Shown here piece after piece: positions 2,124 through 51,031 of a stretch of DNA of 58,071 nt. The first letter of the stretch is position 1. Each line of letters begins with the position of its first letter. Origin of the DNA: a virus (lineage: Duplodnaviria; Caudoviricetes); the IMG/VR virus record IMGVR_UViG_3300034062_006549, positions 1 through 58,071 of that record. One strand, given 5' to 3'. The position numbers and the translations under genes are program-made. The notes under the pieces are model-generated. The model did no database searches. It had not been told where the DNA came from and worked only from the letters and a program-made list of their open reading frames with translations.

Positions 2124-3021
2124 ACTTAACAATTAAGTTAATAATTAAGTCTCCAACAATATTTTCAATCCTGAATCCCTTATTTTTAATTCTCAATGGT
2201 TTAGACGAATCAAATTCATTCGGAAACTTTACAGATAAAATTCCATCAGGATGAGGTACTTCAAAATTTTCCTTATTTAAATCTTCTTTAGTTAAAAAAC
2301 AATTATAAACTAAATCGGTCTCAATTTTGTCAAAGTTCTTTTCGGGTTTAACAATAATTCTAACAACTAGATTACCGAAACTACCATTACTGAAATCCCC
2401 TTTACCTTGCATTCTAAAGAATTGCCCATCACCAATTCCTTTTGGTAATTTTATTTTAATTGTCTCTGTAGTCGGCACAGCACCATTACCAAGACAATTA
2501 TTACATTTAGACTTAAATGTGAATCCTTGACCTCTACAATCATTACAAGGTTGTTTAAATATCTGTGTAAAAAATCCTGAACCCATAGTTACTGTTGTAT
2601 ATCCAACACCATTACATCTATGACAAGTTGATTTTTCACCACCTCTACCATCACATTTATTACAATTAGTAAATCTTTTATATGAAAAGGTTTTTTCTTG
2701 TCCAAAATACGATTCTAACGCACCAACTTCCAAATCAATTACTTTTTCAGGAACACTATTTCTTCTTTGGTTGAAAAAAGAGTTGTTGAATAGGTCTTCA
2801 AAAGTTGCACCTCCACCAAATGGGTTTTTTCTTTGTGTGTCATATTGTTGTCTTTTATTATTATCACTTAATATATCGTAAGCCTCAGATATTTTCTTAA
2901 ATTTTTCTTCATTCCCACCTTTATCTGGGTGATGTTCCATTGCTAACTTTCTATAACTTTTTTTAATCTCATCATTATTTGCTGTTTCTGGAACACCTAA
3001 AATTTCGTAATAATTTTCCAT
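2110..3021 (-). CDS. dnaJ: DnaJ chaperone
   Basis: J domain with HPD, four CxxCxGxG zinc-finger repeats, C-terminal substrate-binding domain. Confidence 0.95.
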
Positions 3022-10573: not shown

Positions 10574-11374
10574 TTACATCCACTCAAATAAATCACCTGA
10601 TAGATTTCTTAGTTTTCTAAGTGATTTTTCCTTTATCTGACGTACCCTCTCTTTAGTTAGATTGAAATCTCCACCAATATCTTCTAATGTTCTTGGAGAA
10701 CCCGATAACCCAAAGTAGTCCTCAACAATCACTCGTTCTCTTTCATCCAAACAAGTCAATAATCCCAATAGTTTCGTTTTAAGAATATCTTTAGTGTGAA
10801 AAGCTTCATCAGGCATATCCGCAGCATCATTCTTTAGAACATCAAATAAAGTATCACCTTCTTCATTGATATCCATATCCAAGTCAATCATAGATGGTAA
10901 GGTTGTAAATTTAGCATCTAATTCACCACCTTTAGAGTCAACTTCTTTTTTTGCACGTTGTAAATCTTGAACCACATTTACTGGGAGACGAATGGTTCTC
11001 GCATTATCATTTAAACTTTGGAGAATTGATTGTTTAACCCACCATACCGCATAAGATATAAATCTTAAGTCTTTGTTCCAATCAAAGTTTTTGATAGCTT
11101 TCATTAAACCAAAATTACCTTCAGCAATAAGGTCACCTAAATCTAATCCCTGATTTTGATATTGTTTTGCAACAGTTATTACAAATCTTAGATTACCCTC
11201 TAATAACTCTTTGTGGACTTTTTCAATGTCTTTTTGTGATAAAGTACCTGATTTCATCAAGACAGCTAATTCTTTCTCTCTCTCAGGTGTCATTACTTTT
11301 TTCTTTCTAATGTCTTTTAAGTAAGACTGAATTTCTTCTTGATTAATTGGAATACCAGAATTTTTCTCTTTCAT
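10574..11374 (-). CDS. RNA polymerase sigma-70 family factor, RpoD/Bacteroidota sigmaA-like
   Basis: NLRFVITVAKQYQNQGLDLGDLIAEGNFGL, FISYAVWWVKQSI, TLEDIG..FNLTKERVRQI; start placed at MKEKNSG. Confidence 0.95.
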   Translation of the reverse strand: MKEKNSGIPINQEEIQSYLKDIRKKKVMTPEREKELAVLMKSGTLSQKDIEKVHKELLEGNLRFVITVAKQYQNQGLDLGDLIAEGNFGLMKAIKNFDWNKDLRFISYAVWWVKQSILQSLNDNARTIRLPVNVVQDLQRAKKEVDSKGGELDAKFTTLPSMIDLDMDINEEGDTLFDVLKNDAADMPDEAFHTKDILKTKLLGLLTCLDERERVIVEDYFGLSGSPRTLEDIGGDFNLTKERVRQIKEKSLRKLRNLSGDLFEWM

Positions 11375-11375
11375 A

Positions 11376-11870
11376 TTAGTTTGAATATTGTTTAAGTAAA
11401 TTTTTTTCATCATTAGTTAATGAACTCATACCACTAACGTTTATTTTGTCCAAAAGTTCATCTAAAGTAGGAATTATTTTTTTGGGTTTATAATCTTTCA
11501 TTTCATCAATATTAGCAATCATTGAGTCTCTCAATTCCTCTTGTTCTTCTCTTGAGAATACTTCATTTTCCTTACAAATATTCGTGCCAAATAATAACTC
11601 TTCATACTCTTTTTCAAACCAATATGACATTTTGTCAGTTTTTATTGGTACTAAAATGTGTGTAATTGATAAATCACCCAAAATTGTGTCAAAGAAATTT
11701 TTTGTATCAGCAAAAGAATTTTTTGTTTCAAATGTTAAAATGGCCGATTGTTCACCAAAAAAATACTTAACACCTGTTTTGTTACAAATCAAACTAATTT
11801 CGTGAGCAACGGATTTTACAAATAACTCTTGTTCATTGTGGGCAATAAAAATCGTGAGTAAGTACTTCAT
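11376..11870 (-). CDS. hypothetical protein with C-terminal DUF6576-like motif
   Basis: C-terminal LDELLDKINVSGMSSLTNDEKNLL; start moved to MKYLL because the upstream region holds a promoter and terminator. Confidence 0.7.
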   Translation of the reverse strand: MKYLLTIFIAHNEQELFVKSVAHEISLICNKTGVKYFFGEQSAILTFETKNSFADTKNFFDTILGDLSITHILVPIKTDKMSYWFEKEYEELLFGTNICKENEVFSREEQEELRDSMIANIDEMKDYKPKKIIPTLDELLDKINVSGMSSLTNDEKNLLKQYSN

Positions 11871-20679: not shown

Positions 20680-20895
20680 ATGCCAACAACAATAACAATA
20701 AATGGAGTTTCAGGTGCAACACCTTTTGACATTTATCTTTGTGATGACCCTCTTACCACTTGTGTCTATGTTGATACAATTACTGGGGGTACTTATTCTT
20801 TTGATGTTCCATTAATTATGGATGGTCAACTTTCTTATAATCTTAAAGTAATTGATGACAATAATTGTGAAATAATCTCAAATCTAGTAGTTTAA
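20680..20895 (+). CDS. small single-module (SprB-repeat-like) structural protein
   Basis: SGATPFDIYLCD...CVYV...LKVIDDNNCE; paralog of 23011..23310. Confidence 0.65.
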   Translation: MPTTITINGVSGATPFDIYLCDDPLTTCVYVDTITGGTYSFDVPLIMDGQLSYNLKVIDDNNCEIISNLVV

Positions 20896-20898
20896 TAA

Positions 20899-22962
20899 AT
20901 GAGTTGTTTTTGTCCATCGGGTTATACCCCAACCATAGATTCAGATGATTGTATATATACAATAACTGCCGCAACAAGTGGTGGTACATATTTTTATACT
21001 GGTGTCGCTGCGGTTGATGTAAGTGTTTATTGTAAGTTTGGTGTTTTTTTCTATGAAGATATTACAAACTTATCATTTCCAATAACCACTTCAGGCACAA
21101 CCGGAACAACAACAACTGAAAATGGTACTTCATTATTTAGCACCCAATTTATGGTTGATAATAGTGGAAGAATTTTAAATATTCAAGCCGGTGGTAATGG
21201 TGCTCCATATGGACCAACATCAATACAAAATAGTTTATGGGGAACAGGAATTGGTACTAGTACTGGTAGATTAAATAACGCAGGTATTTGGGCAACATCA
21301 GTCGTTCCTGGTGACCCAATAGATGAATGGTTAGGATTTTCATATTGTTTAGATATAGTTTCTGGTGGAACTTATTTTATTGGTGTCGCTTCAGATAATC
21401 TTTTCAAATTAACATTAAACAATCAATTATTAGTTCAAAGTAATACAACAAATTTTGATTATAGTGCTCCTTTAGGTATGCCTGGTACATATATTGGGTT
21501 TAATAGTTGGAGTGTTTTCCCAATTACTCTAAGTTCAGGTCTTAACATAATCCAAATGGAATCCTTGAATTTAACAGGTAATCCTTTATCAAATTATGCG
21601 GCCTTTGCTGCGGAAATATATTCAGGTTCAGTTTCTACATTGAGTGGTTATACAAGTTATTCTCAATTAAGTGCTGATACTATTTTTACAACATTAGATT
21701 TTATTGGCCAAGATATTCCGTTATCATCAAGTGGCGCAACAACAAATACGGGTTATACTTGTCCTGATGGGTATTCATTATATACTTGTAGTGGAACACC
21801 ATATTGTATTTTTATAGATAAGGTAGGATTAATTAGTTTTTGTATAAGTGACACTGGATTAGGTTATGATGATAACTTTACACTTTCAGGGACTTATAAT
21901 TCAGAACCATATTGGAGTGGTAGTTCAACTAGTAGAGTTATCTATTTAACTTCAGGTGGGATGTGGTGTTTATCTGATACTTTGGGTGGAACTTGTCTTT
22001 TGGAAGGTGCTTACCCTTGTACTTCAACTTGTCCTGATTTGTGTGATACATATTTTAGTGAGGGAGTTTGTCCGACACCAACACCAACACCTACAATTAA
22101 TTGTTCAGTATTAGATTTTACCGCAATATTTGATTGCGAAGTAACACCAACACCATCTATTACCCCAACATCAACCACTACTCCAACACCTACCCCAACA
22201 CCAACACCAAGTGATCCTTGTGGTGGTAGAGCGGTAGATGTGACAATAACTGGATATACACCAACTCCAACACCTACAATTTCAGTGACACCAACAATGA
22301 CACCTGAAATAACAAGACCTTGTAATGTTAATGGAAATGTTACATTTAATATTATTGACGCTTACATAGAATGTCCAAGTAGTAAACAATTCCAAGATTG
22401 TGAGACTGGTAAAATGTATTATACTACTAAAAAGTTAATAGTTCCTTCAGGTGATGTTTTAGCCCCATTTATGGTTTTCAAAGCTGATGTAAATGGTGTA
22501 TCAAAATGTATTTCGTTTGTTGGTATCAATATGTTAATAATTGGTGTTGATGATATTGTTTTAGTTGATGGTGTTTTAGGATACTCAAACTTAGGTGAAT
22601 GTTCTTTATGTACACCAGATATTCCTCCAACACCAACTCCAACAATGACACCTACAATAAGTCTAACACCTTCGGTAACACCAACTATTTCAGCACCTAT
22701 GGGTTATTATGTTTATAGAAATTGTAATACTTTAGTTTATTTAATTCAAACATCTCCAGGTCCTTCTATAGTACCAGGTCAAACATTCTCAAATCCTTCA
22801 TCAGAATCATTTGGTGATTGTTGGTCGTTTGAATTCTATTCGGCAACTTATCCAACGTTATCACCTAAGGCAAGTTATACTTACTTATCAGGAAATAATT
22901 TTACAAATTTAGGTACAACAATTTATTCAGATTGTGTCTCTTGTAATGCAAGTTCAGGATAA
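20899..22962 (+). CDS. Cys-rich virion fibre/adhesin with PA14-like domain and (PT)n linkers
   Basis: GTYFIGVASDNLFKLTLN...PITLSSGLNIIQME; four Pro/Thr tracts; many Cys. Confidence 0.7.
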   Translation: MSCFCPSGYTPTIDSDDCIYTITAATSGGTYFYTGVAAVDVSVYCKFGVFFYEDITNLSFPITTSGTTGTTTTENGTSLFSTQFMVDNSGRILNIQAGGNGAPYGPTSIQNSLWGTGIGTSTGRLNNAGIWATSVVPGDPIDEWLGFSYCLDIVSGGTYFIGVASDNLFKLTLNNQLLVQSNTTNFDYSAPLGMPGTYIGFNSWSVFPITLSSGLNIIQMESLNLTGNPLSNYAAFAAEIYSGSVSTLSGYTSYSQLSADTIFTTLDFIGQDIPLSSSGATTNTGYTCPDGYSLYTCSGTPYCIFIDKVGLISFCISDTGLGYDDNFTLSGTYNSEPYWSGSSTSRVIYLTSGGMWCLSDTLGGTCLLEGAYPCTSTCPDLCDTYFSEGVCPTPTPTPTINCSVLDFTAIFDCEVTPTPSITPTSTTTPTPTPTPTPSDPCGGRAVDVTITGYTPTPTPTISVTPTMTPEITRPCNVNGNVTFNIIDAYIECPSSKQFQDCETGKMYYTTKKLIVPSGDVLAPFMVFKADVNGVSKCISFVGINMLIIGVDDIVLVDGVLGYSNLGECSLCTPDIPPTPTPTMTPTISLTPSVTPTISAPMGYYVYRNCNTLVYLIQTSPGPSIVPGQTFSNPSSESFGDCWSFEFYSATYPTLSPKASYTYLSGNNFTNLGTTIYSDCVSCNASSG

Positions 22963-23010
22963 TAAAAGATATGTAAATTTCTTTTGTTGTATTTATAGAA
23001 AAATTAAAGG

Positions 23011-23310
23011 ATGCGTACTTTAGAATTTACAAGTGTCACTGGGTTGAACCAACCTTATACTATATACGTTTGTAATGTATTTGGTGGGGATTGTGTATTA
23101 GTCGCATATTTTTCAACGAATGTACCTCCAAACAATTTATTTGTCTTACCACCAGTTTTTGATACAGCCCCAGCAATTGGGGTTAAAGTAATTACAAGTG
23201 ATGGGTGTGAAAGATTTAAGATTTTATATTGTAGTGAAGATATTAAAGAATTTATGGATTTAGATGATTTCTTTTTTATGGATGGAATTGGTTATTTCTT
23301 TATGTCTTAA
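23011..23310 (+). CDS. small single-module structural protein
   Basis: PYTIYVCN...CVLV...VKVITSDGCE; TATTTAT at 22990-22996. Confidence 0.65.
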   Translation: MRTLEFTSVTGLNQPYTIYVCNVFGGDCVLVAYFSTNVPPNNLFVLPPVFDTAPAIGVKVITSDGCERFKILYCSEDIKEFMDLDDFFFMDGIGYFFMS

Positions 23311-23331
23311 GTATTTATAAATAAAAATAGA

Positions 23332-23979
23332 ATGGCATTTCTTACTGATAGAACTTTAGCAACAGGTGTTACCCCAAATGATTTAATTCATATTGTTATT
23401 ACAGGTGACACTTCTCAAAATCCAGCTGGTTCATCATATAAAGCGACAATGGGTCAAGTAATTGACTTGATAAATCCAACTACTTTGACTGGAGGTACTT
23501 ATGATTCAGTCACAGGTTCAATTACTTTTTATGATGACACTGGTGGGAGTTTTATTGTTACTGGTTTAGTCACAGGATTTTCGGATACTTTTGTAACAGC
23601 TTTTACTTATAATAACGCGAATACATTTACAATAACTGAAAATGATGGGTCAACTTTTAGTGCTACTATAGATTCAATTACTGGTATTACATATTATGAA
23701 GCGACAACAGGTATTACTACTTCAGCAACAACTTTAGTATCGGGTTATAGTTATAATGGAATTAATTATTTGGGGAATGTGGACTTAACTTTATTTTCAC
23801 CAAACTCCTTAGATGGTTTAAAAATTATAGTCAAAGATGAAGGTGGAAATGCTGGTTCAAACAGAATACGAATAGCTCCATCAAGTGGAACAATAGATGG
23901 AAACTCTTACATTGATATGAACATAAACTATATGTCACTTACATTTGTGGCAAGAAATAATAATTGGTGGTTAATATAA
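23332..23979 (+). CDS. tail-fibre-like structural protein
   Basis: NDLIHIV...SSYKAT N-terminus; IIVKDEGGNAG...I..GTIDG...SLTF...WWLI fibre-type C-terminus; TATTTAT at 23312-23318. Confidence 0.65.
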   Translation: MAFLTDRTLATGVTPNDLIHIVITGDTSQNPAGSSYKATMGQVIDLINPTTLTGGTYDSVTGSITFYDDTGGSFIVTGLVTGFSDTFVTAFTYNNANTFTITENDGSTFSATIDSITGITYYEATTGITTSATTLVSGYSYNGINYLGNVDLTLFSPNSLDGLKIIVKDEGGNAGSNRIRIAPSSGTIDGNSYIDMNINYMSLTFVARNNNWWLI

Positions 23980-23980
23980 T

Positions 23981-25195
23981 ATGGCATACATTTTTAATAA
24001 TTCAGTAAAGTATTCGGATGGTCCTAACTTAGACGCTTTTGGTCGTTTAAGAACTGCCGCAGTACAAAATCTTTTGGATATCAAACATACATTTGATAAA
24101 AACCCACTTCAAATTAGTGAGGTTACGGCTGGTACTGCTACATCAATATTTGACCAACAATACGCAAGAGTGAGAATGTCAACCTCAGCTAACAATGACT
24201 TGGTTATTCGTAAGACTAAAACACATCCAATTTATCAACCAGGTAAAAGTCAATTATTTGAAGGTAGTTTTAGTAATTTTCAAATAGAACCTAATGTAAT
24301 TAAAAGAGTTGGGTGTTTTCAATCAACAACGGGTTCACCTTATAATTCGGTATTTGATGGTTACTTTTTGGAAAGTAATGGTGTTACTAGTGCAATAACA
24401 TTTAATATATTCTTAAGTGGTTCTTGTACTTTTAGTGCTGACTCAACAACTTGGAACTCAACCGAATTCGACCCAAATAATTTTGATTGGGCAGAAACAA
24501 ATCTAATGACAGTAGATTATCAATGGTTAGGTGTAGGTAGAGTGAGATTTGGTATGGTTTTATCAGGTCAAACATTCTATTTTTTAGATTATACCGCAGC
24601 AAACAATATACCAACTGTTTATATGTCCTCACCGAATCAACCAATTAGATACGAAATTAGACAAGTTGGTGTTGGTTCAGGTTATTTTGATATGATTTGT
24701 TCTCAAACTTCAACAGAAGGTGCCCTAAATGGTTTATATTCAACAGTTTCAATTCCTTACACCGCAACAACCACGATGGCTACCTCAGGTACAAAATATC
24801 CATATATTGGATATAGATTAAAAGAAAATTACATTGGTGTAACATCTCAGTTTGACACAATCAGTATCTTAAACACTTCAAACGATAATTACTTGTTGAC
24901 AATGGAATTCAATCCAACATTATCTTCAACACCAACTTGGACTGATATTCCAAATTCACCTTTTCAATATTCTTTAAGTGATGGAACTCCAACAATAACA
25001 ACACCAGGACACGTAATGACATCTCTAATTGGTGAGGCTGGTACATCTGCTTTAACAACCACCAAATTAGATGACAATCAAATAAGAGTTGGTTCAAATG
25101 TTAATGGTACTAGAGATGAAATGTGGTTATGTATAACACCATTAAGTAATAGTGCCACATTCATTGGTGCTGCTGATGTTTTATATTATTTATAA
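23981..25195 (+). CDS. beta-sandwich (lectin-like) structural protein
   Basis: DAFGRLRT...YQPGKSQ...DYQWLGVGRVRFG...PIRYEI; beta-strand-rich, S/T/G-rich. Confidence 0.6.
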   Translation: MAYIFNNSVKYSDGPNLDAFGRLRTAAVQNLLDIKHTFDKNPLQISEVTAGTATSIFDQQYARVRMSTSANNDLVIRKTKTHPIYQPGKSQLFEGSFSNFQIEPNVIKRVGCFQSTTGSPYNSVFDGYFLESNGVTSAITFNIFLSGSCTFSADSTTWNSTEFDPNNFDWAETNLMTVDYQWLGVGRVRFGMVLSGQTFYFLDYTAANNIPTVYMSSPNQPIRYEIRQVGVGSGYFDMICSQTSTEGALNGLYSTVSIPYTATTTMATSGTKYPYIGYRLKENYIGVTSQFDTISILNTSNDNYLLTMEFNPTLSSTPTWTDIPNSPFQYSLSDGTPTITTPGHVMTSLIGEAGTSALTTTKLDDNQIRVGSNVNGTRDEMWLCITPLSNSATFIGAADVLYYL

Positions 25196-25224
25196 AGTCA
25201 AATAATCCTCTATATTTTTTTAAT

Positions 25225-26202
25225 ATGGAGGATTTAATTTTTGTAACCGCACAACCTGACGTACCTTACTTCCATTGGCAAGTTAGAGTTTATGTCCACA
25301 ACTTTATTGAGATGGGGATTAACCCAAACCAAATACACGTAATATTTGGGATTATGAATCAACAAACAGACCCAAGTTATGATTCATTAAAATTAAAAGA
25401 ATTGGGGATTAATATCCATTATTATAAAGATGAAAGAAAATTCAAACATTATATACCTAGTATAAAACCTTTTTTAATCTACAAGTGGTTGGAAGAATAT
25501 CCTTCATATGGTAAACTAATATTCTTACATGATGCGGACATTGTTTTTAGAAAACTTCCTAACTTTGAAAGTTTAATAAAAGATGATATTAATTATTTAT
25601 CTGACACCATTGGTTATATTGGTTATAACTACATAATTGATTGTTGCAATCGTTATGAGAAAAGCCATCCAAATTGTTCAAAACAAAAACTTTTGGATAA
25701 TATGTGTGATGTTATTGGAATTGATAAAGAAGTTGTTAAATCAAATCAAAATAATTCTGGTGGTGGACAATATTTGATTAAAAATTCTGATTTCAAACTT
25801 TGGGAGAAAATATACATAAATTCTACCGAATTGTACGATAAGATATGGGATTATCACACCAAATATCCAATAAAACCAGGTGAAATTCAATCTTGGACTG
25901 CCGAAATGTGGTCATTACTTTGGAATTTATGGTATTATGGTTTTGAAACAAAAATTTCAGATGAATTAGATTTTTCTTGGGCTACTGATAGTATTGATGT
26001 TTATAATAATAAAAACATTCTCCATATGGCTGGTGTTACTGAGAATCTAAAAACAAAAAAATTCTTTAAGGGGGATTTTATTAATGTGAATCCATTAAAC
26101 AAACTAAAGGAAAATATTGGTTTTTTTGATTATATCGATAAAAATAGTTCAACGACCGAATATATAAAAATAATGAAAACTATTGTTGAAAATGGTTTCT
26201 AA
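25225..26202 (+). CDS. GT-A glycosyltransferase resembling peptidyl-serine galactosyltransferase/Hyp arabinosyltransferase (GT96/GT95)
   Basis: YFHWQ, SIKPFLIYKWL, IFLHDADIVF (DxD), GGQYLI, WTAEMW, ILH, in the same order as SERGT1 YFDWQ, INKP..V.HWL, ILDADM, WISEMY (recalled). Confidence 0.75.
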   Translation: MEDLIFVTAQPDVPYFHWQVRVYVHNFIEMGINPNQIHVIFGIMNQQTDPSYDSLKLKELGINIHYYKDERKFKHYIPSIKPFLIYKWLEEYPSYGKLIFLHDADIVFRKLPNFESLIKDDINYLSDTIGYIGYNYIIDCCNRYEKSHPNCSKQKLLDNMCDVIGIDKEVVKSNQNNSGGGQYLIKNSDFKLWEKIYINSTELYDKIWDYHTKYPIKPGEIQSWTAEMWSLLWNLWYYGFETKISDELDFSWATDSIDVYNNKNILHMAGVTENLKTKKFFKGDFINVNPLNKLKENIGFFDYIDKNSSTTEYIKIMKTIVENGF

Positions 26203-26228
26203 ATCTATTTATTAAAAAAATAATATAA

Positions 26229-28244
26229 ATGAGTTGTAATTGTATTCTACCATTTATGGTAAATGCTGCCGGTAATGGTTGTGAACAAATAACTATAACC
26301 TCAGCAACTATACCACCAATTTTAAGTACTGCAGTATTTCCAACCACAACAAGTGGTAGGTGGGGTACTATGGGTATTGTAGTATATGAAGATATTACCA
26401 ATTTACCAAAACCAATAATATTATCATCAGATATAAGTAATGGTGGTGTATCAACTAGATCAAACCAATCACTAAAAAAATGTACTTTTTTCAGACATAG
26501 TGGTAACCCTTTACAAGGATTCCAAACTAACATTTTAAGTTTACAAGTTGGTGGTCCTGGTTATGGATTTGCTCAAGATTTAATAAATCCTCCAACTTTT
26601 TATGGTCCTGCTATTGAACGGGGAGTTATTGATACTACAGCTGCTGGTTGTAATACGAGTTGTTATCCATCGTATGCACGTACTTGGGGAAATCAATATG
26701 GATGGAATTCAAGTGGTGCAATATGTGGTCCGACATGTAGAGCAGGAAGATTGGGTAAAGCAGGTATATGGGGATCGGGTTTAGGTTTAAACAATTGGGT
26801 TGGTTTTGTTAGTTGTATTACTTTAGCTTCTACTCAAACAATATACATTGGTATGGCCGCTGATGATGATTTTAGATTTTATTTAAATAGTCAATTATTG
26901 GTTGAGGGTGTTTCACCATCATCTATTGCAGGTTTAACCGCCTATGGATTGACCCAAGTTATAGGTGTTTCAACTTCCTTAAATTGGAACGTATTTCCAA
27001 TTACTCTACAAGCGGGTACTTACACATTTTCACTTGAAGCAAGAAATCTTGCTTCTGATGGTATATTAGGTGCCGAAATATATACTAATGTTAATGATGT
27101 TCAGGATTTCAGAACTATGACTGTTCAGGCAGGACCGAATTCTATTTCAAATTATTTAGCTTTTTCAACATTAAATAGAATTGGCCTACCATTTCAATCA
27201 GGCCAAATAACTTGTCCTAATGGATTCTTCCTAACTAATTGTGGTGGTGAAATAAGATGTCAAAGAATTACGACAACAGCTTGTGCTGCTCCACCACCAT
27301 CACCTTCACCAACGCCAACAATAACACCAACACCTACTAAGACACCAACAAGAACACCAACTCCAACACCCACTAAAACTATAACACCAACGCCTACTCA
27401 AACACCTGGTGCTTCGCCAACGCCTACACCATCCATAACACCAACGATAACACCAACAATTACACCAACGATTACACCAACGTCATCTGCAACTCCAACT
27501 CCAACACCGACACCAGTGTATGATTATTTGCAATTTGGTTATGTTCAGGCAAATGAATGTGATGTTATTACAATTTACCCTATGGGTGTAAGTTGTATTA
27601 CAACACCTGTTACAGGAAAACCAGGTAATTCAAATGGTATTATTGAGTTATCAATAACTGGGGGTACTTTACCATATACCATAACTATGACCGATTCAAA
27701 TGGTGTATCATCATTAGTTGGTCAAGTCGTTTATAATTTACCTGCAGGTACGTATAGTTTTGTTATTGTTGATTATTTCAGTGATTTTACTGCAACAACA
27801 ACTTGCACAATTGAAGCTCCAACTCTTCCACCAACTCCAACACCTACACCATCAAATGTACCTGTAACTTGTTTCTGTATGAAATTTAATATATGGACTT
27901 GTTCTAAGACAGCTTCGGATTCTGTTGTTCTTACAAGAACATTCTGTCAGACTATTGATGTATTTGGAGAACCTGCTTGGTTATCAAATACTGGAACTGA
28001 ATTAATATATTTTGATAGTACTGATAATAGATATGAAATGTCGGGTTCAACATCAAGTATTATAAATAGTACACCATTTTTAAGTACGGTAGGTATTCCT
28101 TGTAATAGTATATTTAATACTATTGCTCAACCAAATTCACCAACATTATTTGACGAAATAACCACACAAAGTAATTGGTCTTTAATAAATAATGTTGCAG
28201 GAAATAAATCTCTGAATTGTAAAATAAACTCAGGTAGTTGTTAA
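26229..28244 (+). CDS. Cys-rich virion fibre/adhesin with PA14-like domain, long (PT)n stalk and SprB-like repeat
   Basis: Paralog of 20899..22962 (YEDITNL, GRL..AGIW, W.GF..C, WxVFPITL, AEIY); [14 protein letters not shown]; TATTTAT at 26206-26212. Confidence 0.7.
27290..27520 (+). repeat. coding (ACN-CCN)n low-complexity repeat: Pro/Thr stalk
   Basis: Encodes [26 protein letters not shown]...; similar tracts near 22070-22310, 22620-22700 and 29570-29765. Confidence 0.9.
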
Positions 28245-28248
28245 TATT

Positions 28249-28974
28249 ATGCCTATATTCAATACTATAACTCTTAATCAAACAAATTGTTCTTGTGATG
28301 CAGGAATAACAATTAACACAAGTGGTGGAAATCCACCTTACTCATATTCAATTGATGGTGGTATATCCTTTAGAAATTCCCCAATATTTACAAATATGTG
28401 TTCGGGAAATTACGTTGTAATTGTAAAAGATGTGAGTGGAGAAACATCAAATAATTTTATAACAATCAATCCACCACAAGATAAGATTGCATATAATGTT
28501 TATTTATCAACTTCAGAAAAAATAACACAAGAATCAAATAATTTTGTTTCAAAACAATACATAACAACATTAAATTTCTTTCCAACATTACCTGATAATG
28601 TTTCAGTAACTTTTGATTTAATACATTCAAATATTCAAAAGTCAGGACCTAATGATTACTCATTCTCATCAACAACAACATCAGTTTTGGATATCAATAT
28701 GGTAACAACCTCAAATTCATATTCAGGTTCAACAACTGGTTTGACAAATAATTTGAATAGTGGTTGTCAGAGTGAAAATGTATATATAACAACATTTATG
28801 GAGGGTTGGAATTCATTAACGATGACGAATAGTGATTCATTTGTATTATCAACAACAACAAATCTATATAAAAACGAAACTATACTATGTTACATTGGTA
28901 CAAGTGATGAATATTTTTCAATTTCGAATTTAAGTATAAGTGGTTGTACTTGTTGTACAATTGTGACATCATAA
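28249..28974 (+). CDS. SprB-repeat structural protein
   Basis: C..AGITINTSGGNPPYSYSIDGG...FTNMCSGNYVVIVKD. Confidence 0.7.
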   Translation: MPIFNTITLNQTNCSCDAGITINTSGGNPPYSYSIDGGISFRNSPIFTNMCSGNYVVIVKDVSGETSNNFITINPPQDKIAYNVYLSTSEKITQESNNFVSKQYITTLNFFPTLPDNVSVTFDLIHSNIQKSGPNDYSFSSTTTSVLDINMVTTSNSYSGSTTGLTNNLNSGCQSENVYITTFMEGWNSLTMTNSDSFVLSTTTNLYKNETILCYIGTSDEYFSISNLSISGCTCCTIVTS

Positions 28975-29000
28975 AAAAACAAGACTATATATTTATAGGC

Positions 29001-32000
29001 ATGGGATATATTATAAAAAATACGGCAGGACTTATAAATACCAGGATGACAGATGCTGGTAGACAAAAATTATCACAAGGAAATTTTAACATTACTTATT
29101 TCCAAGTTGGTGATAGTGAAGTAACATATACAGCAATACCAAACTATAATCCAACAAACTTTTTTGTGTTAGAACCAAGTTTTAATGCCCAAAATACCTC
29201 AGGTGCTCCACAATCCAACAAACAAAATGTAAAATATCCTTTTTATGTTGATGGGGATAAAGGTAACACTTATGGTATTGCGAATATGAACTCAATAGTT
29301 AGTCCAATTTATAATACTGCAGCTGAAAGAGGTTTTTTCCAAGGTACAAGTATAAAAGGAACTAATGATTACAATTGGAGTGCTTTAACTAATAATTTGT
29401 ATGCTATAAATTCAAATTATGTAGTTCAAATGAACACCTTAACTGGTGGTACAACTATCGATATTATATTTGATAGTTGTAATCCATCTTCTGTTAGAAA
29501 TATTGCTGTTGGTGATTTGATTACAATATATTACGATGGTAATGGTCTTTATGATTGTAATTGTTCAAATTTTCCAACACCAACTCCTACGCCAACAATA
29601 AGTGTTACACCAACAAGTTCTCCATTAGTACCTGTTAGTCCAACACCAACTCCATCAACAACGAACACAAATCCTTGTGCTTCTCCAACACCTACACCAA
29701 CACCATCAGCAACTTTTTGTCCAACACCTACACCAAGTAATCCTTGTCCTCAACCACCACCACCTGATTGTGTTGTGAGTATGAGTAGTTGTTATCCTAT
29801 TTTGACATATAAAGTTGTTAATGTTTGTTTTAATACAATAACATTAGACAGAGTAACTCCTGATTATTCTTATTTGAGCGGTAATTGTTATGGTAGATTA
29901 ATTGTATATCCACCTAATATGACATCATTGTATGATAGTATTACACCATCTAATCATTGGAGTGATAGTGTTATAAATTTTGAGTCGGTTTGTTATACTG
30001 ACCAATTCAATGTTAATATTTGGAATATGAATATTCCTTGGTCTGAAAATCCAGCAGGATTAGACCCATCTACATATAAAGATTATACAACTTTTGGTTC
30101 AAGAAATTACTTGGGTTCAAAAGAATATTTTGGTTATGCTTCAAGTTCAGGACAAACTGATACCGATTCAACATATTATTTCAATTCATTTGATGAGAAA
30201 ATTGTAGTTAGCCCTGAAGACCAAAAAGCTATTGCAATAATTCATTATACAAATCAAACGATTGATTTATTCTATGGTGAAAAATTTGCATTGGAACCAT
30301 TTGATATCTCAGTTGATGACACCACAGGTCAAGCAAGAAACTTTAAATTACATATTCCTTGGATAATGTGGCATAAGAATCCTGAATGTTGTTATGGTCA
30401 AACATTTTGGGTTGATCCCCCAGGTTTTGATGGTTTAAATTTATTTCAAGTTCATTATTTGAAATCATCCAAAAATGGAGATATGAATGACCCTGGTATA
30501 AGATATTATCATCTTTGGGATACAAATCCAAATGAAAATGCAAGTGGTTTTGGGTTAAAAGCAAGTCAAAGTCAAGTTGCAATTGGTACACCAAATAGAG
30601 TTGGTAAGGTATTCCCAGATTCTCATTTGATTGTAATTGATGATGAAGAATTAATTGCTGCGTTATCTTATAAATCAAATAGAAACTGGACATTACCCGC
30701 ACCACAAGTTTCGTTAATAACACCAAATACTTGTGGTATTGATAATACTTCAACTATTGGGGTTTTGACTAGTTCAACTGAATATATGTATGTTACATAT
30801 AGATTATCAAATAGTACAATATTTACAGATTATCTTCATTGTAATTATTATAGCCCTATTCAAGGTCCTAATATTACTTGTACTCCATTAACTTCTCAAA
30901 ATGTTGCAATAAGATTTGGGGATGAATTTAGATGTTTAGGTTATCCTGAAACACCGATAGTACCATATGATACTTGTTATTTAACAGGTTTTACTATGTA
31001 TGTTGTTCAAGCCCCTGAGGTGTACATTGGAGCTTTCTTTGTGCCAACAGGTAATTTTTTAAATGGTCAACCAATTTTCTATAGTCCAATATTTTCACTT
31101 AATATATATTATGATGGTAGTCAATGGTTATTAAATCAAACAACTCAAATTGATGATTTAGTAATTTTTAATACACCATCACCTATTGGTGACTTTGATT
31201 TAGGAGACGCCTCAACAGGTTTTACTATTTGTGAATCAGGTTCACCGATATGTGTTGAGACTTGTTTCCAAAATGAGTCTTGTACTCAAGAAATTTTACC
31301 AAAATATTTAGTGTATGGTGATACGATTTATAATAATGGATTTTTTGGTACAATAGAGTATAGTGCCTCAACATCTGAATGGGTTGTTGTTTCATCTGAT
31401 ACTATTACAATCTTAGCCACATTAGCAGGTTTAACCGAAAATGATGTACCTTCATCAAGTAGTTGGACGATAATTGAACCAACTCTTACTGGTATTACAA
31501 CGACAGAAGGTTATTGTAGTATTGGTTGTCAATGTGTTAGTTATACGGGTGATAATGCTACTAATATATTAAAATATATGGATTGTAATGGGGTTATAAG
31601 TGATGAAATTCCATTATCAATTGGTGAAGTTTATAGTGCTTGTACATTAGAAATACTCGATTCATATTTTTTCAGTAATCCAATTGGTTCAACTAGTTTT
31701 TCCGCTTGTGCTGAAACTTGTCCAACAACTACAACAACAACAACTTGTCCTCCAGCTTGTGACTTAACTTCAAAATATTACGCAGACACATTTGAAATTA
31801 TTTGTCAGAAAGTAGGTCCTAATGAAAGACCAAATTCCAGTGAATGGAGAGTTATTGATTTTACTAATCAATTAAGTGCTTCAACCATTAATGGTTTTAT
31901 TACACCCGAATCATTATCTGCAACTACGTTTGTAATAACAAATGATGATTATGAAAATGCACCTAACTATAGTTTGAATTATTTAGGTTTACCTTCTGCT

Positions 32001-32282
32001 GGTTCAACTGGAACAAGTCTGAATTTTGGTGATGAATATTATTTCTATGGTAATTTAGAAACTGATATTCAAGCTACAATTTATGAAATGAGATATAAAG
32101 TAAATTTAGGTGCAACTGAATTCTTAGCATCATCTAATCCAACTTGGTCTTCAGGTATTCAACCACACGTTAGCGAAATAGGACTTTACGATTCTGATAA
32201 AAATCTTATGATTATATCAAAATTGCAATCACCATATCCAAGAACTGGTGTACAACAATTTTTAATAAAATTCGATTTTTAA
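29001..32282 (+). CDS. large tail-fibre attachment/baseplate protein (P2 gpH N-domain/DUF3751-like termini)
   Basis: N-terminal MTDAGRQKL...ITYFQVGD and C-terminal SEIGLYD...LMIISKLQSP; internal PT tract; start moved to ATG 29001 after TATTTAT (28990-28996). Confidence 0.7.
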   Translation: MGYIIKNTAGLINTRMTDAGRQKLSQGNFNITYFQVGDSEVTYTAIPNYNPTNFFVLEPSFNAQNTSGAPQSNKQNVKYPFYVDGDKGNTYGIANMNSIVSPIYNTAAERGFFQGTSIKGTNDYNWSALTNNLYAINSNYVVQMNTLTGGTTIDIIFDSCNPSSVRNIAVGDLITIYYDGNGLYDCNCSNFPTPTPTPTISVTPTSSPLVPVSPTPTPSTTNTNPCASPTPTPTPSATFCPTPTPSNPCPQPPPPDCVVSMSSCYPILTYKVVNVCFNTITLDRVTPDYSYLSGNCYGRLIVYPPNMTSLYDSITPSNHWSDSVINFESVCYTDQFNVNIWNMNIPWSENPAGLDPSTYKDYTTFGSRNYLGSKEYFGYASSSGQTDTDSTYYFNSFDEKIVVSPEDQKAIAIIHYTNQTIDLFYGEKFALEPFDISVDDTTGQARNFKLHIPWIMWHKNPECCYGQTFWVDPPGFDGLNLFQVHYLKSSKNGDMNDPGIRYYHLWDTNPNENASGFGLKASQSQVAIGTPNRVGKVFPDSHLIVIDDEELIAALSYKSNRNWTLPAPQVSLITPNTCGIDNTSTIGVLTSSTEYMYVTYRLSNSTIFTDYLHCNYYSPIQGPNITCTPLTSQNVAIRFGDEFRCLGYPETPIVPYDTCYLTGFTMYVVQAPEVYIGAFFVPTGNFLNGQPIFYSPIFSLNIYYDGSQWLLNQTTQIDDLVIFNTPSPIGDFDLGDASTGFTICESGSPICVETCFQNESCTQEILPKYLVYGDTIYNNGFFGTIEYSASTSEWVVVSSDTITILATLAGLTENDVPSSSSWTIIEPTLTGITTTEGYCSIGCQCVSYTGDNATNILKYMDCNGVISDEIPLSIGEVYSACTLEILDSYFFSNPIGSTSFSACAETCPTTTTTTTCPPACDLTSKYYADTFEIICQKVGPNERPNSSEWRVIDFTNQLSASTINGFITPESLSATTFVITNDDYENAPNYSLNYLGLPSAGSTGTSLNFGDEYYFYGNLETDIQATIYEMRYKVNLGATEFLASSNPTWSSGIQPHVSEIGLYDSDKNLMIISKLQSPYPRTGVQQFLIKFDF

Positions 32283-32288
32283 TCATAT

Positions 32289-32888
32289 ATGAAAAACGAC
32301 TTACAAGAAAGCCCGAAAATTTTAGGGTTAGATGTTTCAACTAAAACAATTGGTTGGGCATTATTTGATGTTAATAGTAAAGAACTATTAGAACTTACTC
32401 ATATTTCACCAATATCAAAAAATAAAACTCTAAATAAAATGGAGGATTTATTTTTGAAAACTGAAATTTTTAGGACTAAACTTGAAAAGTATGATGAATT
32501 AAATATTACTAAAGTTATTATAGAAGAACCACTACTTAATAGTAATAATGTTCATACAATACAAATTTTGATGCGATATAATACTTTAATTTCAAAAGAA
32601 GTTTATGATGTTTTGGGAATTGTACCTGAATACATTTCAACGTATAATTCAAGAAAAAATGCTTTCCCTTGGTTAGTAAAAGATAATGGGAAAGGAAAAT
32701 TTGTTCTGTTTGGGGGATTTCCAAAAGATTGTGATAAAAAACAAATTATTTGGGAACAAGTTGCAAAAAGAGAACCTCAAATAAATTGGACTTACACAAG
32801 GAATAACACACTAAAAAAAGAAAATTTTGATATGACTGATGCCTATTGTTGTGTATTAGGATATATGAAACAAGAAAACTTATGGTAA
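32289..32888 (+). CDS. RuvC-like Holliday junction resolvase
   Basis: ILGLDVSTKTIGWA, VIIEEP, K, DMTDAY. Confidence 0.88.
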   Translation: MKNDLQESPKILGLDVSTKTIGWALFDVNSKELLELTHISPISKNKTLNKMEDLFLKTEIFRTKLEKYDELNITKVIIEEPLLNSNNVHTIQILMRYNTLISKEVYDVLGIVPEYISTYNSRKNAFPWLVKDNGKGKFVLFGGFPKDCDKKQIIWEQVAKREPQINWTYTRNNTLKKENFDMTDAYCCVLGYMKQENLW

Positions 32889-32892
32889 AATT

Positions 32893-32920
32893 AAACCCCA
32901 CTTTTTAGGTGGGGTTTTTT
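32893..32920. terminator. bidirectional intrinsic terminator between convergent units
   Basis: AAACCCCAC-7 nt-GTGGGGTTTTTT. Confidence 0.85.
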
Positions 32921-32923
32921 CTT

Positions 32924-35900
32924 TTATGGTACGGCAATATCTCCAACAAATGTCCAAGTATAACTTGCAATTATATTAGACCTTGCTACGTCTGCTGTAC
33001 TACCTATCTGATATTGTAATCCATTAACACCAAGAATAACATTTGGTTGTAATGATGGTAATGAATTCCAACCAATAAGAAGATTTTCGTAATTAGTTTG
33101 ACTCATATTACATCCATCAAACATAAAACCACCACCTTGTAACGCAGATACATTCCAAGTACTTAAGTCTTGGTCAAAAGAAGTTGCATTATTGAACATT
33201 CCTGGAGCTGAGATAAGATTAATAACATTCCAATTGTTCAATGTTTGATTGAATGACGTTGCTCCATTAAACATATCATTTGAACTTGTCACATTTGATA
33301 CATTCCAACTATTTAATGGTTGATTAAAGGATGTTGCCCCTTGGAACATAGCACCAATTTGTGTATTATTTCCCATATCCCAATTACTAATATCTTGGTT
33401 GAATGTCGTTGCAAATATAAACATTCTTGTTGTATCTGTGACTGAAGAAGTGTTCCAATTATTTAATGGTTGATTATACAATGTACATCCTCTGAACATA
33501 CTATTGATAGTAGTTACGTTTTCCATATTCCAACTTTCAATATTATCATCAAATGAAGTAGCATCTCTAAAAGTTGCAAACATATTTGTTATAGTTGATG
33601 TGTCCCAATATTCAACATTATTGATTGTTGTTAATAATGAACACCCTCTGAAAGTATTTAATAAAGTGGTACAATTTGTTAAATCCAAAAAGTCAGTTAC
33701 ACCTGATAAATTCAAATTATAACATCCATAAAAATGACCACCAGTATTACCTAATTCCAAAATACCCCATTGTATAACATCGGTCATTTTTTCTTCATCC
33801 CCACTATTATTGAATGTCCAACCTGATAATTGACCATTAATTTGAATTACATATTTGTCATTTACACTATAGGTATGAGTTGTCAATGGATCATTCCAAG
33901 TATTAATTATATCAATATTTCCATCTCCCCAATCAACTTCAAAATCGTAAACTCCTCCAGATTCTAATGGAAGGGTAAAGTTACCAATTCCTGACACCCC
34001 AGCGAAATTTACATCAACTTCAAAAATAAATGGTACAACAACAGGACTTCCACATTCTTCACAACTAATATCATAATTTATTATCAGATTAACCGTTAGA
34101 TTTGCATCAATAATAAAAATTTCAGGATTACAAATTGTACTTACACTTATTGTGTTTGTGGCAGGATTTACAATAACACTTTCAATCTCAGTATATGATT
34201 CTAATACAGTTTTAAGTGTTTCATAAAAATATTCATCTGATGGAAAATCAGTAATACCTGAACTGATATAAATTCCTAATCCTTGTACATTTCCATTGAG
34301 ATTCGCTTCTAAATAAAATGATGCCAAATTTATAACACAATTGGTATCACCTGATGTTAAATCGTGAAAACCTTCAATTAACATTTGTTCAGGACCTCTT
34401 CGTATCAATGTTCCATCACTTGAAAGTTGATTCTCACAAAGTGTGAATAATTCAAATGAAGATATTTTATTATATCCCAATAATGTTGTAGTTCTACTTC
34501 TAACACATCCATTATCATCAGTTATTGATAAAGAATATGTTCCTGCTGTTAAACCACTTATTGTAGAACCAGTTTGACCACCAACGTTAGAACTCCAATT
34601 TAAAATAAATGGTGGCTCTCCTGCAGTTATAAATGCAGTAATTTCACCATCATTACCATTTTCTACATTTGTGGATGATAAATAAAAATCAATTGTATTT
34701 GATGGGTCTATTACAAATCCAACAGATTGTTGACATAAATTAGTATCTGTAACACTTGCCGTATAATTTCCTGATGGTAAATTTGTAAAAGTAAATGAAG
34801 TACCAGTAACCCCAAAGATAATACTTGAGTCTATTTCAAATTTATACGGTGGTGTTCCACCTGATGTAATCGTTAAGGTAACTGAACCGTTTGTATTATC
34901 ACAAGTAGTACCAGTTGTTGATGTTGATAATGTAAATAAACTTGTATTTGATATTGTAACTGATTGTGTGAAAACACAAGGTCCTCCATCAGATATTGTT
35001 AAAGTGTATGTTCCTGATGGTAGATTATTAAAACTATAACTTTTAATGGTACCAGGTGTTGTATCAGTAATTGTCTGAGTATTACCTGAAGAGTCTACTA
35101 ATGTATAGATAAAAGGACCACTACCACCTAAAAAGTTGAAATTAATTGTACCACTACTATTATTACAAGTTGAGTTAGTAGTCGATACTAATATTGTTGA
35201 AAATGAATTAGGTGTATTTAAAAATGTTGATCCGTTAACTGTACATAAACCAGCATCAGTAACCAATACCGAAAAAGCACCTGCTGCTAAACCTGTAAAA
35301 GTATGAGAAGTACTAAATGTAATTTCAACAGCACCATTTGAACCTGAATAATAATAAGGGGCTGTTCCACCAGTAACAATAATAGTTATCTCACCATCAG
35401 AGGCGAAACAAGTTGGGTTGACTGCGGTAAAGGTACCTATTCCAAAATCTTGAGCTGAAATAATATTTGTTCCCAAACTTTGTACACAACCCGAACCATC
35501 TGTAACATTTACACTATAAAATCCATCAGTCAAACCAGTAATAAATGATGTTGTTTCACCATTTGGTGACCAAGAATATGTATATGGTGGTGTACCTGTT
35601 AATCCTGTAATATATATAGCACCTGAATTAAAAGCACAAGCTGCGTTGTTAATAGTGTAAAAACCAAAATTTAATGTTGATGAACTTTTAATTATACAAC
35701 TTTCAGTTTTACCAGTACACCCTCCACCATCATCTGCTATAACATAATAAGTTCCTGCGGATAAATTAGTAAATGTAATACTATAATCTAATACAGAACC
35801 TGAAGTAACTAAACCACTATTAAGTTCGTATAAATAAAATTCATTTACATCATAATAGTTTGTTGTTGTTGCGGTAATACTTCCGTTTACTTGATTACAA

Positions 35901-36205
35901 GTAGTATTTTCAATGTCCGTTATAGATACACAAGTTCCCGAAGAAATATAAATACTAATAGGTTGAATTGTGTTAAATGGGACACAGCTATCGATTATTT
36001 CAAATTGATACGTACCTGCACTCAAACTATCAAGTGAGTAAGTTGTTGATGAACCTAAAGCGACCGCAGTTCCACCTGAAGGACTAACCCAATAAATTAA
36101 GTATGAGGGTGCTGAACCTGTGAATTGGAGTTCAAACGCCCCTGAACTGGTATTGGAACAATCACCAGTAATACTTATTGATTCTATATTTAAATAACAA
36201 GACAT
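32924..36205 (-). CDS. fibre/adhesin: tandem SprB-like repeats plus C-terminal DUF285/BspA-type repeats
   Basis: About 7 repeats of C...G.I.....GGTPPY...FTNL.AGTY.V.VTD..GC; VDWGDG; repeats of FNQPLNSWNVSNVT...MF. Confidence 0.82.
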   Translation of the reverse strand: MSCYLNIESISITGDCSNTSSGAFELQFTGSAPSYLIYWVSPSGGTAVALGSSTTYSLDSLSAGTYQFEIIDSCVPFNTIQPISIYISSGTCVSITDIENTTCNQVNGSITATTTNYYDVNEFYLYELNSGLVTSGSVLDYSITFTNLSAGTYYVIADDGGGCTGKTESCIIKSSSTLNFGFYTINNAACAFNSGAIYITGLTGTPPYTYSWSPNGETTSFITGLTDGFYSVNVTDGSGCVQSLGTNIISAQDFGIGTFTAVNPTCFASDGEITIIVTGGTAPYYYSGSNGAVEITFSTSHTFTGLAAGAFSVLVTDAGLCTVNGSTFLNTPNSFSTILVSTTNSTCNNSSGTINFNFLGGSGPFIYTLVDSSGNTQTITDTTPGTIKSYSFNNLPSGTYTLTISDGGPCVFTQSVTISNTSLFTLSTSTTGTTCDNTNGSVTLTITSGGTPPYKFEIDSSIIFGVTGTSFTFTNLPSGNYTASVTDTNLCQQSVGFVIDPSNTIDFYLSSTNVENGNDGEITAFITAGEPPFILNWSSNVGGQTGSTISGLTAGTYSLSITDDNGCVRSRTTTLLGYNKISSFELFTLCENQLSSDGTLIRRGPEQMLIEGFHDLTSGDTNCVINLASFYLEANLNGNVQGLGIYISSGITDFPSDEYFYETLKTVLESYTEIESVIVNPATNTISVSTICNPEIFIIDANLTVNLIINYDISCEECGSPVVVPFIFEVDVNFAGVSGIGNFTLPLESGGVYDFEVDWGDGNIDIINTWNDPLTTHTYSVNDKYVIQINGQLSGWTFNNSGDEEKMTDVIQWGILELGNTGGHFYGCYNLNLSGVTDFLDLTNCTTLLNTFRGCSLLTTINNVEYWDTSTITNMFATFRDATSFDDNIESWNMENVTTINSMFRGCTLYNQPLNNWNTSSVTDTTRMFIFATTFNQDISNWDMGNNTQIGAMFQGATSFNQPLNSWNVSNVTSSNDMFNGATSFNQTLNNWNVINLISAPGMFNNATSFDQDLSTWNVSALQGGGFMFDGCNMSQTNYENLLIGWNSLPSLQPNVILGVNGLQYQIGSTADVARSNIIASYTWTFVGDIAVP

Positions 36206-51029: not shown

Positions 51030-51031
51030 AA

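Follow-up and report, generated by a model that had tools for sequence, protein, structure and literature searches.

A 58,071-nucleotide stretch of viral DNA (Duplodnaviria; Caudoviricetes; IMG/VR record IMGVR_UViG_3300034062_006549, positions 1 to 58,071), referred to here as the window, carries on its plus strand at 25225-26202 a gene for a 325-residue protein that is predicted with confidence to be a glycosyltransferase (GT) of the GT-A fold and that is set among three genes for large proteins with Pro/Thr (PT) tracts. An original prediction, drawn from the sequence and its open reading frames (ORFs), had seen in this arrangement a phage system for protein O-glycosylation, in which a transferase resembling, by a proposed common order of motifs, the plant and algal enzymes HPAT (GT95) and SERGT1 (GT96) would modify Pro-rich fibres of the virion. 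The analysis described here indicates that the enzyme probably is an O-glycosyltransferase of virion proteins that acts on Thr-rich tracts, a reading carried chiefly by the coupling of the gene to such tracts in distantly related phages.

The window has a GC content of about 30%. Its minus strand codes from 1 to 20.6 kb mostly for replication and repair proteins (primase, two exonucleases, SbcCD), together with a sigma factor, a DnaJ homologue and an amidase. There follows a plus-strand block, 20680-32888, in which the genes for a 71-aa, a 687-aa PT, a 99-aa, a 215-aa and a 404-aa protein precede that of the transferase, and those for a 671-aa PT protein, a 241-aa protein, a large PT protein (starting at 29001 or 28944) and a RuvC-like resolvase come after it. 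Downstream of the block lie large minus-strand genes that include baseplate wedge subunits at 49191-51538, with ribonucleotide reductase and a DnaB-like helicase beyond them. The gaps flanking the transferase gene measure 29 nt (5') and 26 nt (3'), and the sole strong terminator-like hairpin stands at the end of the block, so that the transferase is likely to be co-transcribed with virion genes. It is indeed the only enzyme-like gene inside 20680-32282, the resolvase beginning just outside at 32289. The description of these surroundings as a structural island is backed in part, by the phrog_1645 match of the gene at 23981-25195 and by the baseplate wedge genes.

PT tracts were scored over all ORFs of at least 60 aa as 12-aa windows with at least ten P/T/S, of which at least three P and at least three T/S. 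Exactly three ORFs in the 58 kb carry one, namely the 687-aa, 671-aa and 28944/29001-32282 genes, which amount to three of the 43 non-overlapping ORFs of at least 100 aa; the three tract genes named in the original prediction, the third at 29001-32282 included, are the sole tract carriers of the window. Besides a Thr/Pro tract, the 1112-aa protein encoded from 28944 has TCPTTTTTTTCPPA at aa 925-938. The predicted paralogy of the two flanking proteins also stood, as roughly the first 300 residues of the 687-aa and 671-aa proteins form a shared domain (28% identity, E 6e-22). Their designation as fibres did not. The 671-aa protein has 14 homologues, some with SprB or PEBP domains, and neither it nor the 1112-aa protein found a match in the phage collection; for the PT proteins no PHROG with a function and no annotated relative was obtained, and an AlphaFold2 model of the 671-aa N-domain, with a mean predicted local distance difference test (pLDDT) score of only 57, was too poor for a structure search.

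Fold and sequence family of the transferase

The translation of 25225-26202 holds the whole motif series first noted in it (YFHWQ, SIKPFLIYKWL, HDAD, GGGQY and WTAEMW), and these motifs fall on the most conserved columns of the family. In an alignment of 58 sequences W18, Y76, D105 and G180 are invariant, Y15, Q19, D103, G179, Q182, Q222, W224 and W229 are at least 90% conserved, M228 is among the invariant or nearly invariant columns and H267 is conserved too. The DxD and a polar/aromatic set are invariant or nearly so across sequences that are only 29-40% identical. The protein matches phrog_4417 over its full length (E 2.7e-71, residues 6-320 on positions 3-291 of the 293 of the profile), a family whose members, among them Lactococcus bIL285 Orf45, Enterococcus phiFL1A gp51 and Lactobacillus LP65 Orf49, are annotated as hypothetical in PHROGs and in the phage records examined. 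These relatives show 33-36% identity over at least 90% of the length (tblastn) and template modelling (TM) scores of 0.70-0.88 in BFVD. The family is large: a word-indexed search gathered 1375 proteins at E ≤ 0.001 and an exhaustive one 860 cluster representatives (50% clustering) at the same threshold, 333 of these at E ≤ 1e-30. By tblastn, 77 phage records were matched at E ≤ 1e-5, mostly Gram-positive siphoviruses and Lactobacillus myoviruses, all at less than 60% identity and, among the 40 of the 77 that were listed, at 32.6-36.3%.

Pfam offered no family for the window transferase and none for five homologues from named phages, which gave one stray Eaf7 match (E 0.017), while a scan of all 58 alignment members returned scattered matches in single members only. 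Neither the single sequence nor the 58-sequence profile had a meaningful sequence match to any PDB chain. Matches to TALE-repeat PDB chains (E 0.0061-0.057; residues 153-184, nt 25681-25776) concern one helix-loop segment and were judged to reflect chance or a shared motif. A 5690-aa database protein matches transferase residues 145-200 in 29 stretches.

An AlphaFold2 model built with the family alignment reached a mean pLDDT of 97.5 and a predicted TM score of 0.94. Foldseek related it to 202 PDB chains at E ≤ 0.001, and among the matches listed all were nucleotide-sugar transferases. The best of them (E 5.5e-7 to about 3e-5) were the catalytic domain of UGGT (GT24), WbbM, glycogenin and XXYLT1 (GT8) and the GTA/GTB blood-group enzymes (GT6). 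The HDAD motif directly follows the β-strand of residues 98-101 of the model, which is the canonical position of a DxD. On the strength of this model the gene is confidently predicted to encode a GT-A fold, DxD glycosyltransferase, as originally proposed. The protein resembles the retaining enzymes of GT24, GT8 and GT6 in its GT-A fold with a DxD and differs from them in that TM scores are only 0.37-0.48 and identities 8-14%; several of these enzymes act on proteins or glycoproteins. Among viral models the best matches were family members with TM scores of 0.88 and 0.70, the latter LP65 Orf49, followed by GT8-like proteins of giant viruses.

Considerably closer in shape are two clusters of the ESM Atlas, compared as predicted models on both sides: a Streptophyta HPAT cluster (TM 0.73 over 277 residues) and a Chlorophyta ShK-HPAT cluster (TM 0.72 over 289 residues), both 99% PF23452 and with TM scores well above that of any PDB match. 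Language-model features point the same way, 17 of the 30 nearest named clusters belonging to an HPAT set (10% of whose members carry PF23452) and six more being DUF7164. The Pfam model of HPAT itself (PF23452, gathering threshold 23.9 bits) left the window protein unmatched at E ≤ 1 and matched one of the 58 alignment members, only at E 0.09. It was also unmatched in the window record at E ≤ 10, in three genomes that hold homologues and in 301 Bacteroidota genomes; the controls gave no match either, which makes these weak negatives. In predicted shape HPAT (GT95) is thus the nearest named family, a resemblance that the sequence model does not turn into membership, and the GT95-like label of the original prediction stands for shape and language-model features and not for the Pfam model.

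HPAT O-glycosylates side-chain hydroxyls in Pro-rich peptides, and SERGT1 (GT96) does so on Ser in extensin-type peptides. HPAT has a type II membrane anchor and a hydroxyproline acceptor. Unlike HPAT, the phage protein is without an N-terminal membrane anchor or hydrophobic segment: it starts MEDLIFVTAQP and enters directly into β-strand 1 (residues 5-11). A scan of 41 window ORFs turned up no prolyl hydroxylase, so that the acceptor is more likely to be Thr than hydroxyproline. As a donor, UDP-L-arabinofuranose is improbable in bacteria.

Coupling of the gene to Thr-rich tracts

The linkage seen in the window recurs in its own lineage. Among 80 loci on related viral contigs (56-70% identity), examined with 10 kb to each side, 76 had a PT-tract ORF in the flanks, and the four without one had only 0-4.7 kb of downstream flank. 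Tract genes gather close to the transferase, making up 80 of the 174 genes within 1 kb, 77 of 143 at 1-3 kb, 62 of 227 at 3-6 kb and 13 of 334 at 6-10 kb, and the next downstream gene bears a tract in 49 of 74 loci. Since this is one lineage with a conserved gene order, the counts taken alone show linkage, not function.

Far more distant homologues keep the association. All five named phages examined (phiFL1A, bIL285, vipetofem, Bacchae and MA9V-3) have Thr-rich tracts near the transferase. In phiFL1A the transferase gene immediately follows that of the major tail protein, in bIL285 that of the major head protein and in Bacchae that of a 115-aa 'major tail protein'; in vipetofem a single small ORF on the reverse strand separates it from the major head gene that precedes it. 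Poly-Thr tails end both the capsid-position gp45 and the major tail protein gp50 of phiFL1A, runs of T9-T10 end the major tail proteins of bIL285 and vipetofem, three small T-rich proteins surround the transferase of Bacchae, and long T/S runs occur in two genes upstream of it in Chryseobacterium phage MA9V-3. A scan of bacterial genomes, one genome per prokaryotic species, added 80 loci at 30-38% identity and one at 61%. Here a tract, taken as a 12-aa window with at least ten S/T/P and at least four T, was present in 40 of 442 genes within 3 kb of the homologue versus 2 of 573 farther out. In Bacillota a tract gene stood within 3 kb in 22 of 23 loci, and the directly upstream same-strand gene bore the tract in 17 of the 23, usually at its extreme C-terminus. 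Of ten tract neighbours scanned against PHROGs, four matched as major head proteins (phrog_840, phrog_10) and three as major tail or tail tube proteins (phrog_88, phrog_6686); one was an Ig-like 'major tail protein', one, an 842-aa protein from Bacteroidota, shared PHROGs of unknown function with window ORF 32924-36205, and one had no family. Locus searches begun from two further distant homologues gave two loci for one (P0260) and none for the other (P0204). Co-occurrence of homologues with tract genes is therefore strongly positive across distant phages (40/442 versus 2/573), as expected from the original prediction; its picture of extensin-like Pro-rich stalks gives way, linkage being strongest instead with the poly-Thr C-termini of major head and tail proteins. 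Tracts of the distant relatives often include Pro (KPTTTTT, APTTTTTT, EAPTTTT), and some proteobacterial and Bacteroidota contigs (L100, L157, L158) have a large upstream protein with 5-8 Thr-rich linkers, which is the architecture nearest to that of the window.

The coupling extends to joint presence and absence. Relatives of two poly-Thr-tailed capsid proteins were scored for the capsid tail and for a transferase homologue, and loci with no transferase seen and less than 5 kb downstream were dropped; tails were finally scored by the 12-aa tract rule, in place of a looser 'T-tail' rule. In the Lactococcus-type set (80 fetched, one capsid cut by the contig end, 29 dropped, 50 evaluated) five loci had a long tail and a full transferase, 43 had neither, two lacked the tail and held a 42-50-aa transferase remnant, and a tail without a transferase did not occur. 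In the Enterococcus-type set (80 fetched, two capsids cut by the contig end, three dropped, 75 evaluated) the respective numbers were 69 with both and four with neither, again with no tail lacking a transferase, and two tailed capsids came with a partial transferase match, one at a contig end and one of 39 aa. Discordant loci thus number zero among the 50 and zero among the 75, in the window itself only linkage being seen. The tail of the major tail protein is likewise missing in relatives that lack the transferase.

The two transferase remnants of the Lactococcus-type set (L180 5865-6067 and L184 7496-7699) sit in the gap after the tail-less capsid gene, which suggests that enzyme and tails were lost together. 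Short capsid ends such as KTTTSTAV and KTTTTTAG are found in transferase-less relatives (L169, L174, L176-L178, L181, L182, L188, L189, L192); they could be vestiges of tails or targets of another enzyme.

Elsewhere in the family the domain keeps company with peptide-modifying types of enzyme. Ten of 17 homologues longer than 650 aa (P0271-P0280; 658-739 aa) are fused to radical SAM and SPASM domains, and others of the 17 carry GT1, GT2, GT6 or PF04488 domains; no long plant-like homologue was among them. Ten other long forms include three with PF11397 (GlcNAc transferase), one of these also with PF10250 (O-FucT), one with GT6 and six without a Pfam family. On chromosomes of Bacteroidota (Chitinophaga, Mucilaginibacter, Pedobacter and related genera) the domain is fused to a GT7C-like domain, as at 10001-12940 of L103 and 10001-12717 of L115. 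Both of the Bacteroidota loci that were scanned with Pfam have a LanC-like gene after the transferase fusion, L103 with a radical SAM gene upstream as well, and by tblastn over 80 genome loci 22 have the GT7C fusion and 22 a LanC-like gene, which in 21 of these comes just after the transferase. As enzymes of the radical SAM/SPASM and LanC types work on peptides, such contexts would suit a family whose acceptor is a peptide or protein. The radical SAM/SPASM forms look like fusions of a peptide maturase with a glycosyltransferase, for which no description was found, and the Bacteroidota loci with GT7C and LanC-like partners look like peptide natural-product clusters.

Proposed acceptors and rival explanations

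Four observations, namely the fold, the DxD that the family conserves, the order of the genes and the genetic coupling to Thr-rich tracts across the family, suggest an active enzyme with a protein acceptor, with Thr as the modified residue and, in the window, with PT tracts as the acceptors. The protein would be a soluble, metal-dependent GT-A enzyme made late in infection along with virion genes, which in the host cytoplasm would use a nucleotide sugar to O-glycosylate hydroxyls of Thr, perhaps also of Ser, in unstructured Thr-rich or Thr/Pro-rich tracts of virion proteins before or during assembly. In the window the acceptors would be the (TP)n linkers of the proteins encoded at 20899-22962, 26229-28244 and 29001-32282, and the outcome mucin-like glycosylated linkers on the particle, with stiffening, protease resistance, shielding or adhesion as possible benefits. 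As a single transferase is seen in this part of the genome, the glycan may be short, unless partners are encoded elsewhere. We consider it probable that the window enzyme is such a virion-protein O-glycosyltransferase acting on Thr-rich tracts; that the family acts on a protein or peptide acceptor we hold with slightly more assurance, and the more specific claim, which makes the (TP)n linkers the targets in the window, with slightly less.

Several results weigh against the proposal. The matches in the PDB are distant, the HPAT model is unmatched by the window protein, and the literature yielded no biochemical or proteomic work on any family member. (TP)n linkers are common, and often unglycosylated, in bacterial multidomain proteins. 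No tract gene lies within 3 kb of the homologue in 36 of 40 Bacteroidota loci, in five of six Actinomycetota loci and in several small contigs. The covariation was measured on near-pure poly-Thr C-terminal tails belonging to head and tail-tube proteins, while the window has internal (TP)n linkers. The 69 full-length Enterococcus-type positives represent only 22 distinct capsid sequences and, because the loci within each set are closely related, the counts overstate the number of independent events; under the looser 'T-tail' rule nine transferase-less Lactococcus-type capsids, with short T4-5 ends, were scored as tailed. In the window, the 404-aa protein directly upstream of the transferase bears no tract, and the record amounts by estimate to about 20% of the genome, so that other transferases or targets may lie elsewhere.

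Some of these points would also suit a virion-protein glycosyltransferase for which the (TP)n tracts are plain flexible linkers and the real target is another site or protein, for instance the TTTTTTT run of the 1112-aa protein (aa 925-938), the 404-aa protein encoded just upstream or some head or tail protein whose gene lies beyond the window. The restriction of the covariation to poly-Thr runs as against alternating TP, the small share of the genome in hand, the tract-less virion gene immediately upstream and the mere 30-38% identity of the window homologue to the tail-linked ones all speak for this alternative, which we nevertheless regard as unlikely, as tract genes of the window's own lineage cluster at the transferase (80/174 within 1 kb versus 13/334 at 6-10 kb), Pro is frequent in the distant tracts, and large multi-tract proteins stand directly upstream in the proteobacterial and Bacteroidota loci L157, L158, L095 and L100. 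A non-protein acceptor (phage DNA bases, a host envelope glycan, teichoic acid or a small molecule), with the virion-gene setting incidental, appears somewhat less likely again. The frequent absence of a nearby tract from Bacteroidota chromosomal homologues (36/40) and the presence of polysaccharide enzymes such as WbbM among the best PDB matches agree with it, and phage glycosyltransferases are best known, both generally and according to one article (PMC12619734), for modifying DNA or host glycans. Against this the gene is found inside late structural operons of unrelated phages, where it immediately follows major head or tail genes; it is present or missing together with the poly-Thr tails, its fusion and neighbour partners elsewhere are of peptide-modifying types (radical SAM/SPASM, LanC-like), and a scan of 41 ORFs of the window revealed neither hydroxymethyl-pyrimidine nor sugar-nucleotide genes. 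That the protein is a catalytically inactive structural or assembly component which has kept a transferase-like fold is very improbable: the gene is always in structural modules and the phiFL2B record labels its homologue 'major tail protein', but that label is contradicted by phiFL1A, in which the major tail protein is the preceding gene, while the DxD and the polar/aromatic residues are invariant or nearly so at 29-40% identity and homologues are fused to other enzymes.

Self-glycosylation of virions is an established capability of some phages. Three articles that draw on Freeman et al. 2023 (PMC12619734, PMC12363180, PMC13313380) describe mycobacteriophage transferases that glycosylate the phage's own capsid and tail-tube subunits at their C-termini, with Che8 gp110, Corndog gp38 and Myrna as examples in the first two. 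Going by the literature consulted, virion glycosylation is experimentally established only for some actinobacteriophages, where it alters antibody recognition. As in those systems the phrog_4417 transferase gene lies in a structural module, and the tracts in Bacillota are C-terminal tails of major head and tail proteins. Unlike those systems, the phrog_4417 family has its hosts among Bacillota, Bacteroidota and others and goes with an acceptor signature of poly-Thr or (TP)n, and none of the 77 tblastn records (E ≤ 1e-5) is a Mycobacterium phage, which indicates no sequence relation at tblastn sensitivity; the window tracts moreover are internal linkers of large proteins, unlike the C-terminal targets of mycobacteriophages. 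A literature search that leaves out most subscription journals turned up no paper on the phrog_4417 family or on phage head or tail proteins with poly-Thr tails. What is known is thus phage self-glycosylation of virions; what is new is the phrog_4417 family, the other host phyla and a distinct acceptor signature.

We are almost evenly divided, leaning slightly towards doubt, over a wider reading, in which the HPAT-like family would be a widespread, portable module of a Thr-rich tag plus its transferase, sharing ancestry with the plant and algal enzymes that glycosylate extensins, with a catalytic domain put to further use in the peptide natural-product clusters of bacteria. Phages of Bacillota, Bacteroidota and Proteobacteria, including Lactococcus bIL285, Enterococcus phiFL1A and VPE25-type phages, would then O-glycosylate their own heads, tails and adhesin-like proteins. 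If this is true, glycosylated virions would be common among the phages that infect lactic acid bacteria, enterococci, staphylococci and hosts from freshwater or the Bacteroidota. This would matter for phage therapy (immune recognition, particle stability), for dairy phage biology and for the way in which large aquatic phages construct long adhesin-like appendages. For a large family of 'hypothetical' phage proteins the reading offers a first functional lead, tied to plant GT95 and to peptide natural-product glycosylation. The family-wide pattern is strong and unannotated, and cultivable phages carry the module, so that the idea is directly testable.

Neighbouring genes and other features of the window

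The features of the plus-strand block are collected in Table 1. For the 404-aa protein tblastn returned 128 phage records, mostly T4-like cyanophage 'virion structural protein'.

Table 1. Positions of the transferase gene, the candidate acceptors with their tracts, and adjoining features
Feature	Position (nt)	Strand	Remarks
Transferase, 325 aa	25225-26202	+	GT-A fold, DxD, phrog_4417; candidate virion-protein O-glycosyltransferase
DxD codons D103-A104-D105, inside HDAD	25531-25539	+	From family alignment and model
687-aa multidomain protein, candidate acceptor	20899-22962	+	Three Thr/Pro tracts; weak PA14 match, E 0.083
Tract, aa 415-441 of 687-aa protein	22141-22221	+	
Tract, aa 454-466 of 687-aa protein	22258-22296	+	
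Tract, aa 575-588 of 687-aa protein	22621-22662	+	
671-aa multidomain protein, candidate acceptor	26229-28244	+	Starts 26 nt past transferase stop
Tract, aa 353-430 of 671-aa protein	27285-27518	+	
Tract, aa 530-545 of 671-aa protein	27816-27863	+	
Large protein, candidate acceptor	29001-32282	+	1112 aa if from TTG 28944; first ATG 29001
Thr/Pro tract, aa 211-258 of 1112-aa protein	29574-29717	+	
Thr run, aa 925-938 of 1112-aa protein	31716-31757	+	
404-aa virion structural protein	23981-25195	+	Directly 5' of transferase; phrog_1645, E 8e-48
215-aa protein	23332-23979	+	Weak phrog_972 'tail fiber protein proximal subunit', E 3.6e-4
241-aa protein	28249-28974	+	SprB repeat PF13573, E 5.6e-5, under curated cut-off
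71-aa protein, first of block	20680-20895	+	Weak Ig-like PF10342, E 0.001, under cut-off
RuvC-like resolvase	starts 32289		Just past the stretch 20680-32282 of the original prediction
Terminator-like hairpin, strongest of region	32893-32917	+	11-pair stem then T run; ends block 20680-32888

The product of the minus-strand gene that follows the block, 32924-36205, is 1093 aa long, contains DUF285 (E 1.2e-55) and SprB repeats and has no tract in the window. Many related loci have, at 4.2-6.5 kb downstream of the transferase, an ORF on the minus strand that bears PT tracts; it might be the counterpart of 32924-36205, a guess from position only. A Thr-tract protein beside the transferase in L095 matches PHROGs 17273, 22899 and 3649, as does the product of 32924-36205.

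A 13-pair hairpin with one G-U pair, at 25204-25234, covers the start codon of the transferase at 25225 (minimum free energy -14.9 kcal/mol for a 42-nt segment) and is kept in the nearest relative, L006, through a change on both arms. It is not lineage-wide: the ATG is fully paired in 22 of 61 distinct sequences, and the mean minimum free energy is -4.4 versus -2.6 for shuffled sequences. The hairpin may lower translation of the transferase relative to the structural genes.

The 71-aa (20680-20895) and 99-aa (23011-23310) ORFs are alike in their N-terminal halves and show a weak Ig-like match, and each precedes a larger gene of the block. On the minus strand of the window, 2110-3021 codes for a full DnaJ homologue with J, Zn-finger and C-terminal domains, 10574-11413 for a sigma-70 family factor and 489-1862 for a protein whose leucine-rich repeats score under the threshold. 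Among the replication genes, a 283-aa ORF at 6932-7783 (minus strand) shows a weak, sub-threshold match to the major capsid family of T4 Gp23 (E 1.5e-4) confined to residues 57-141.

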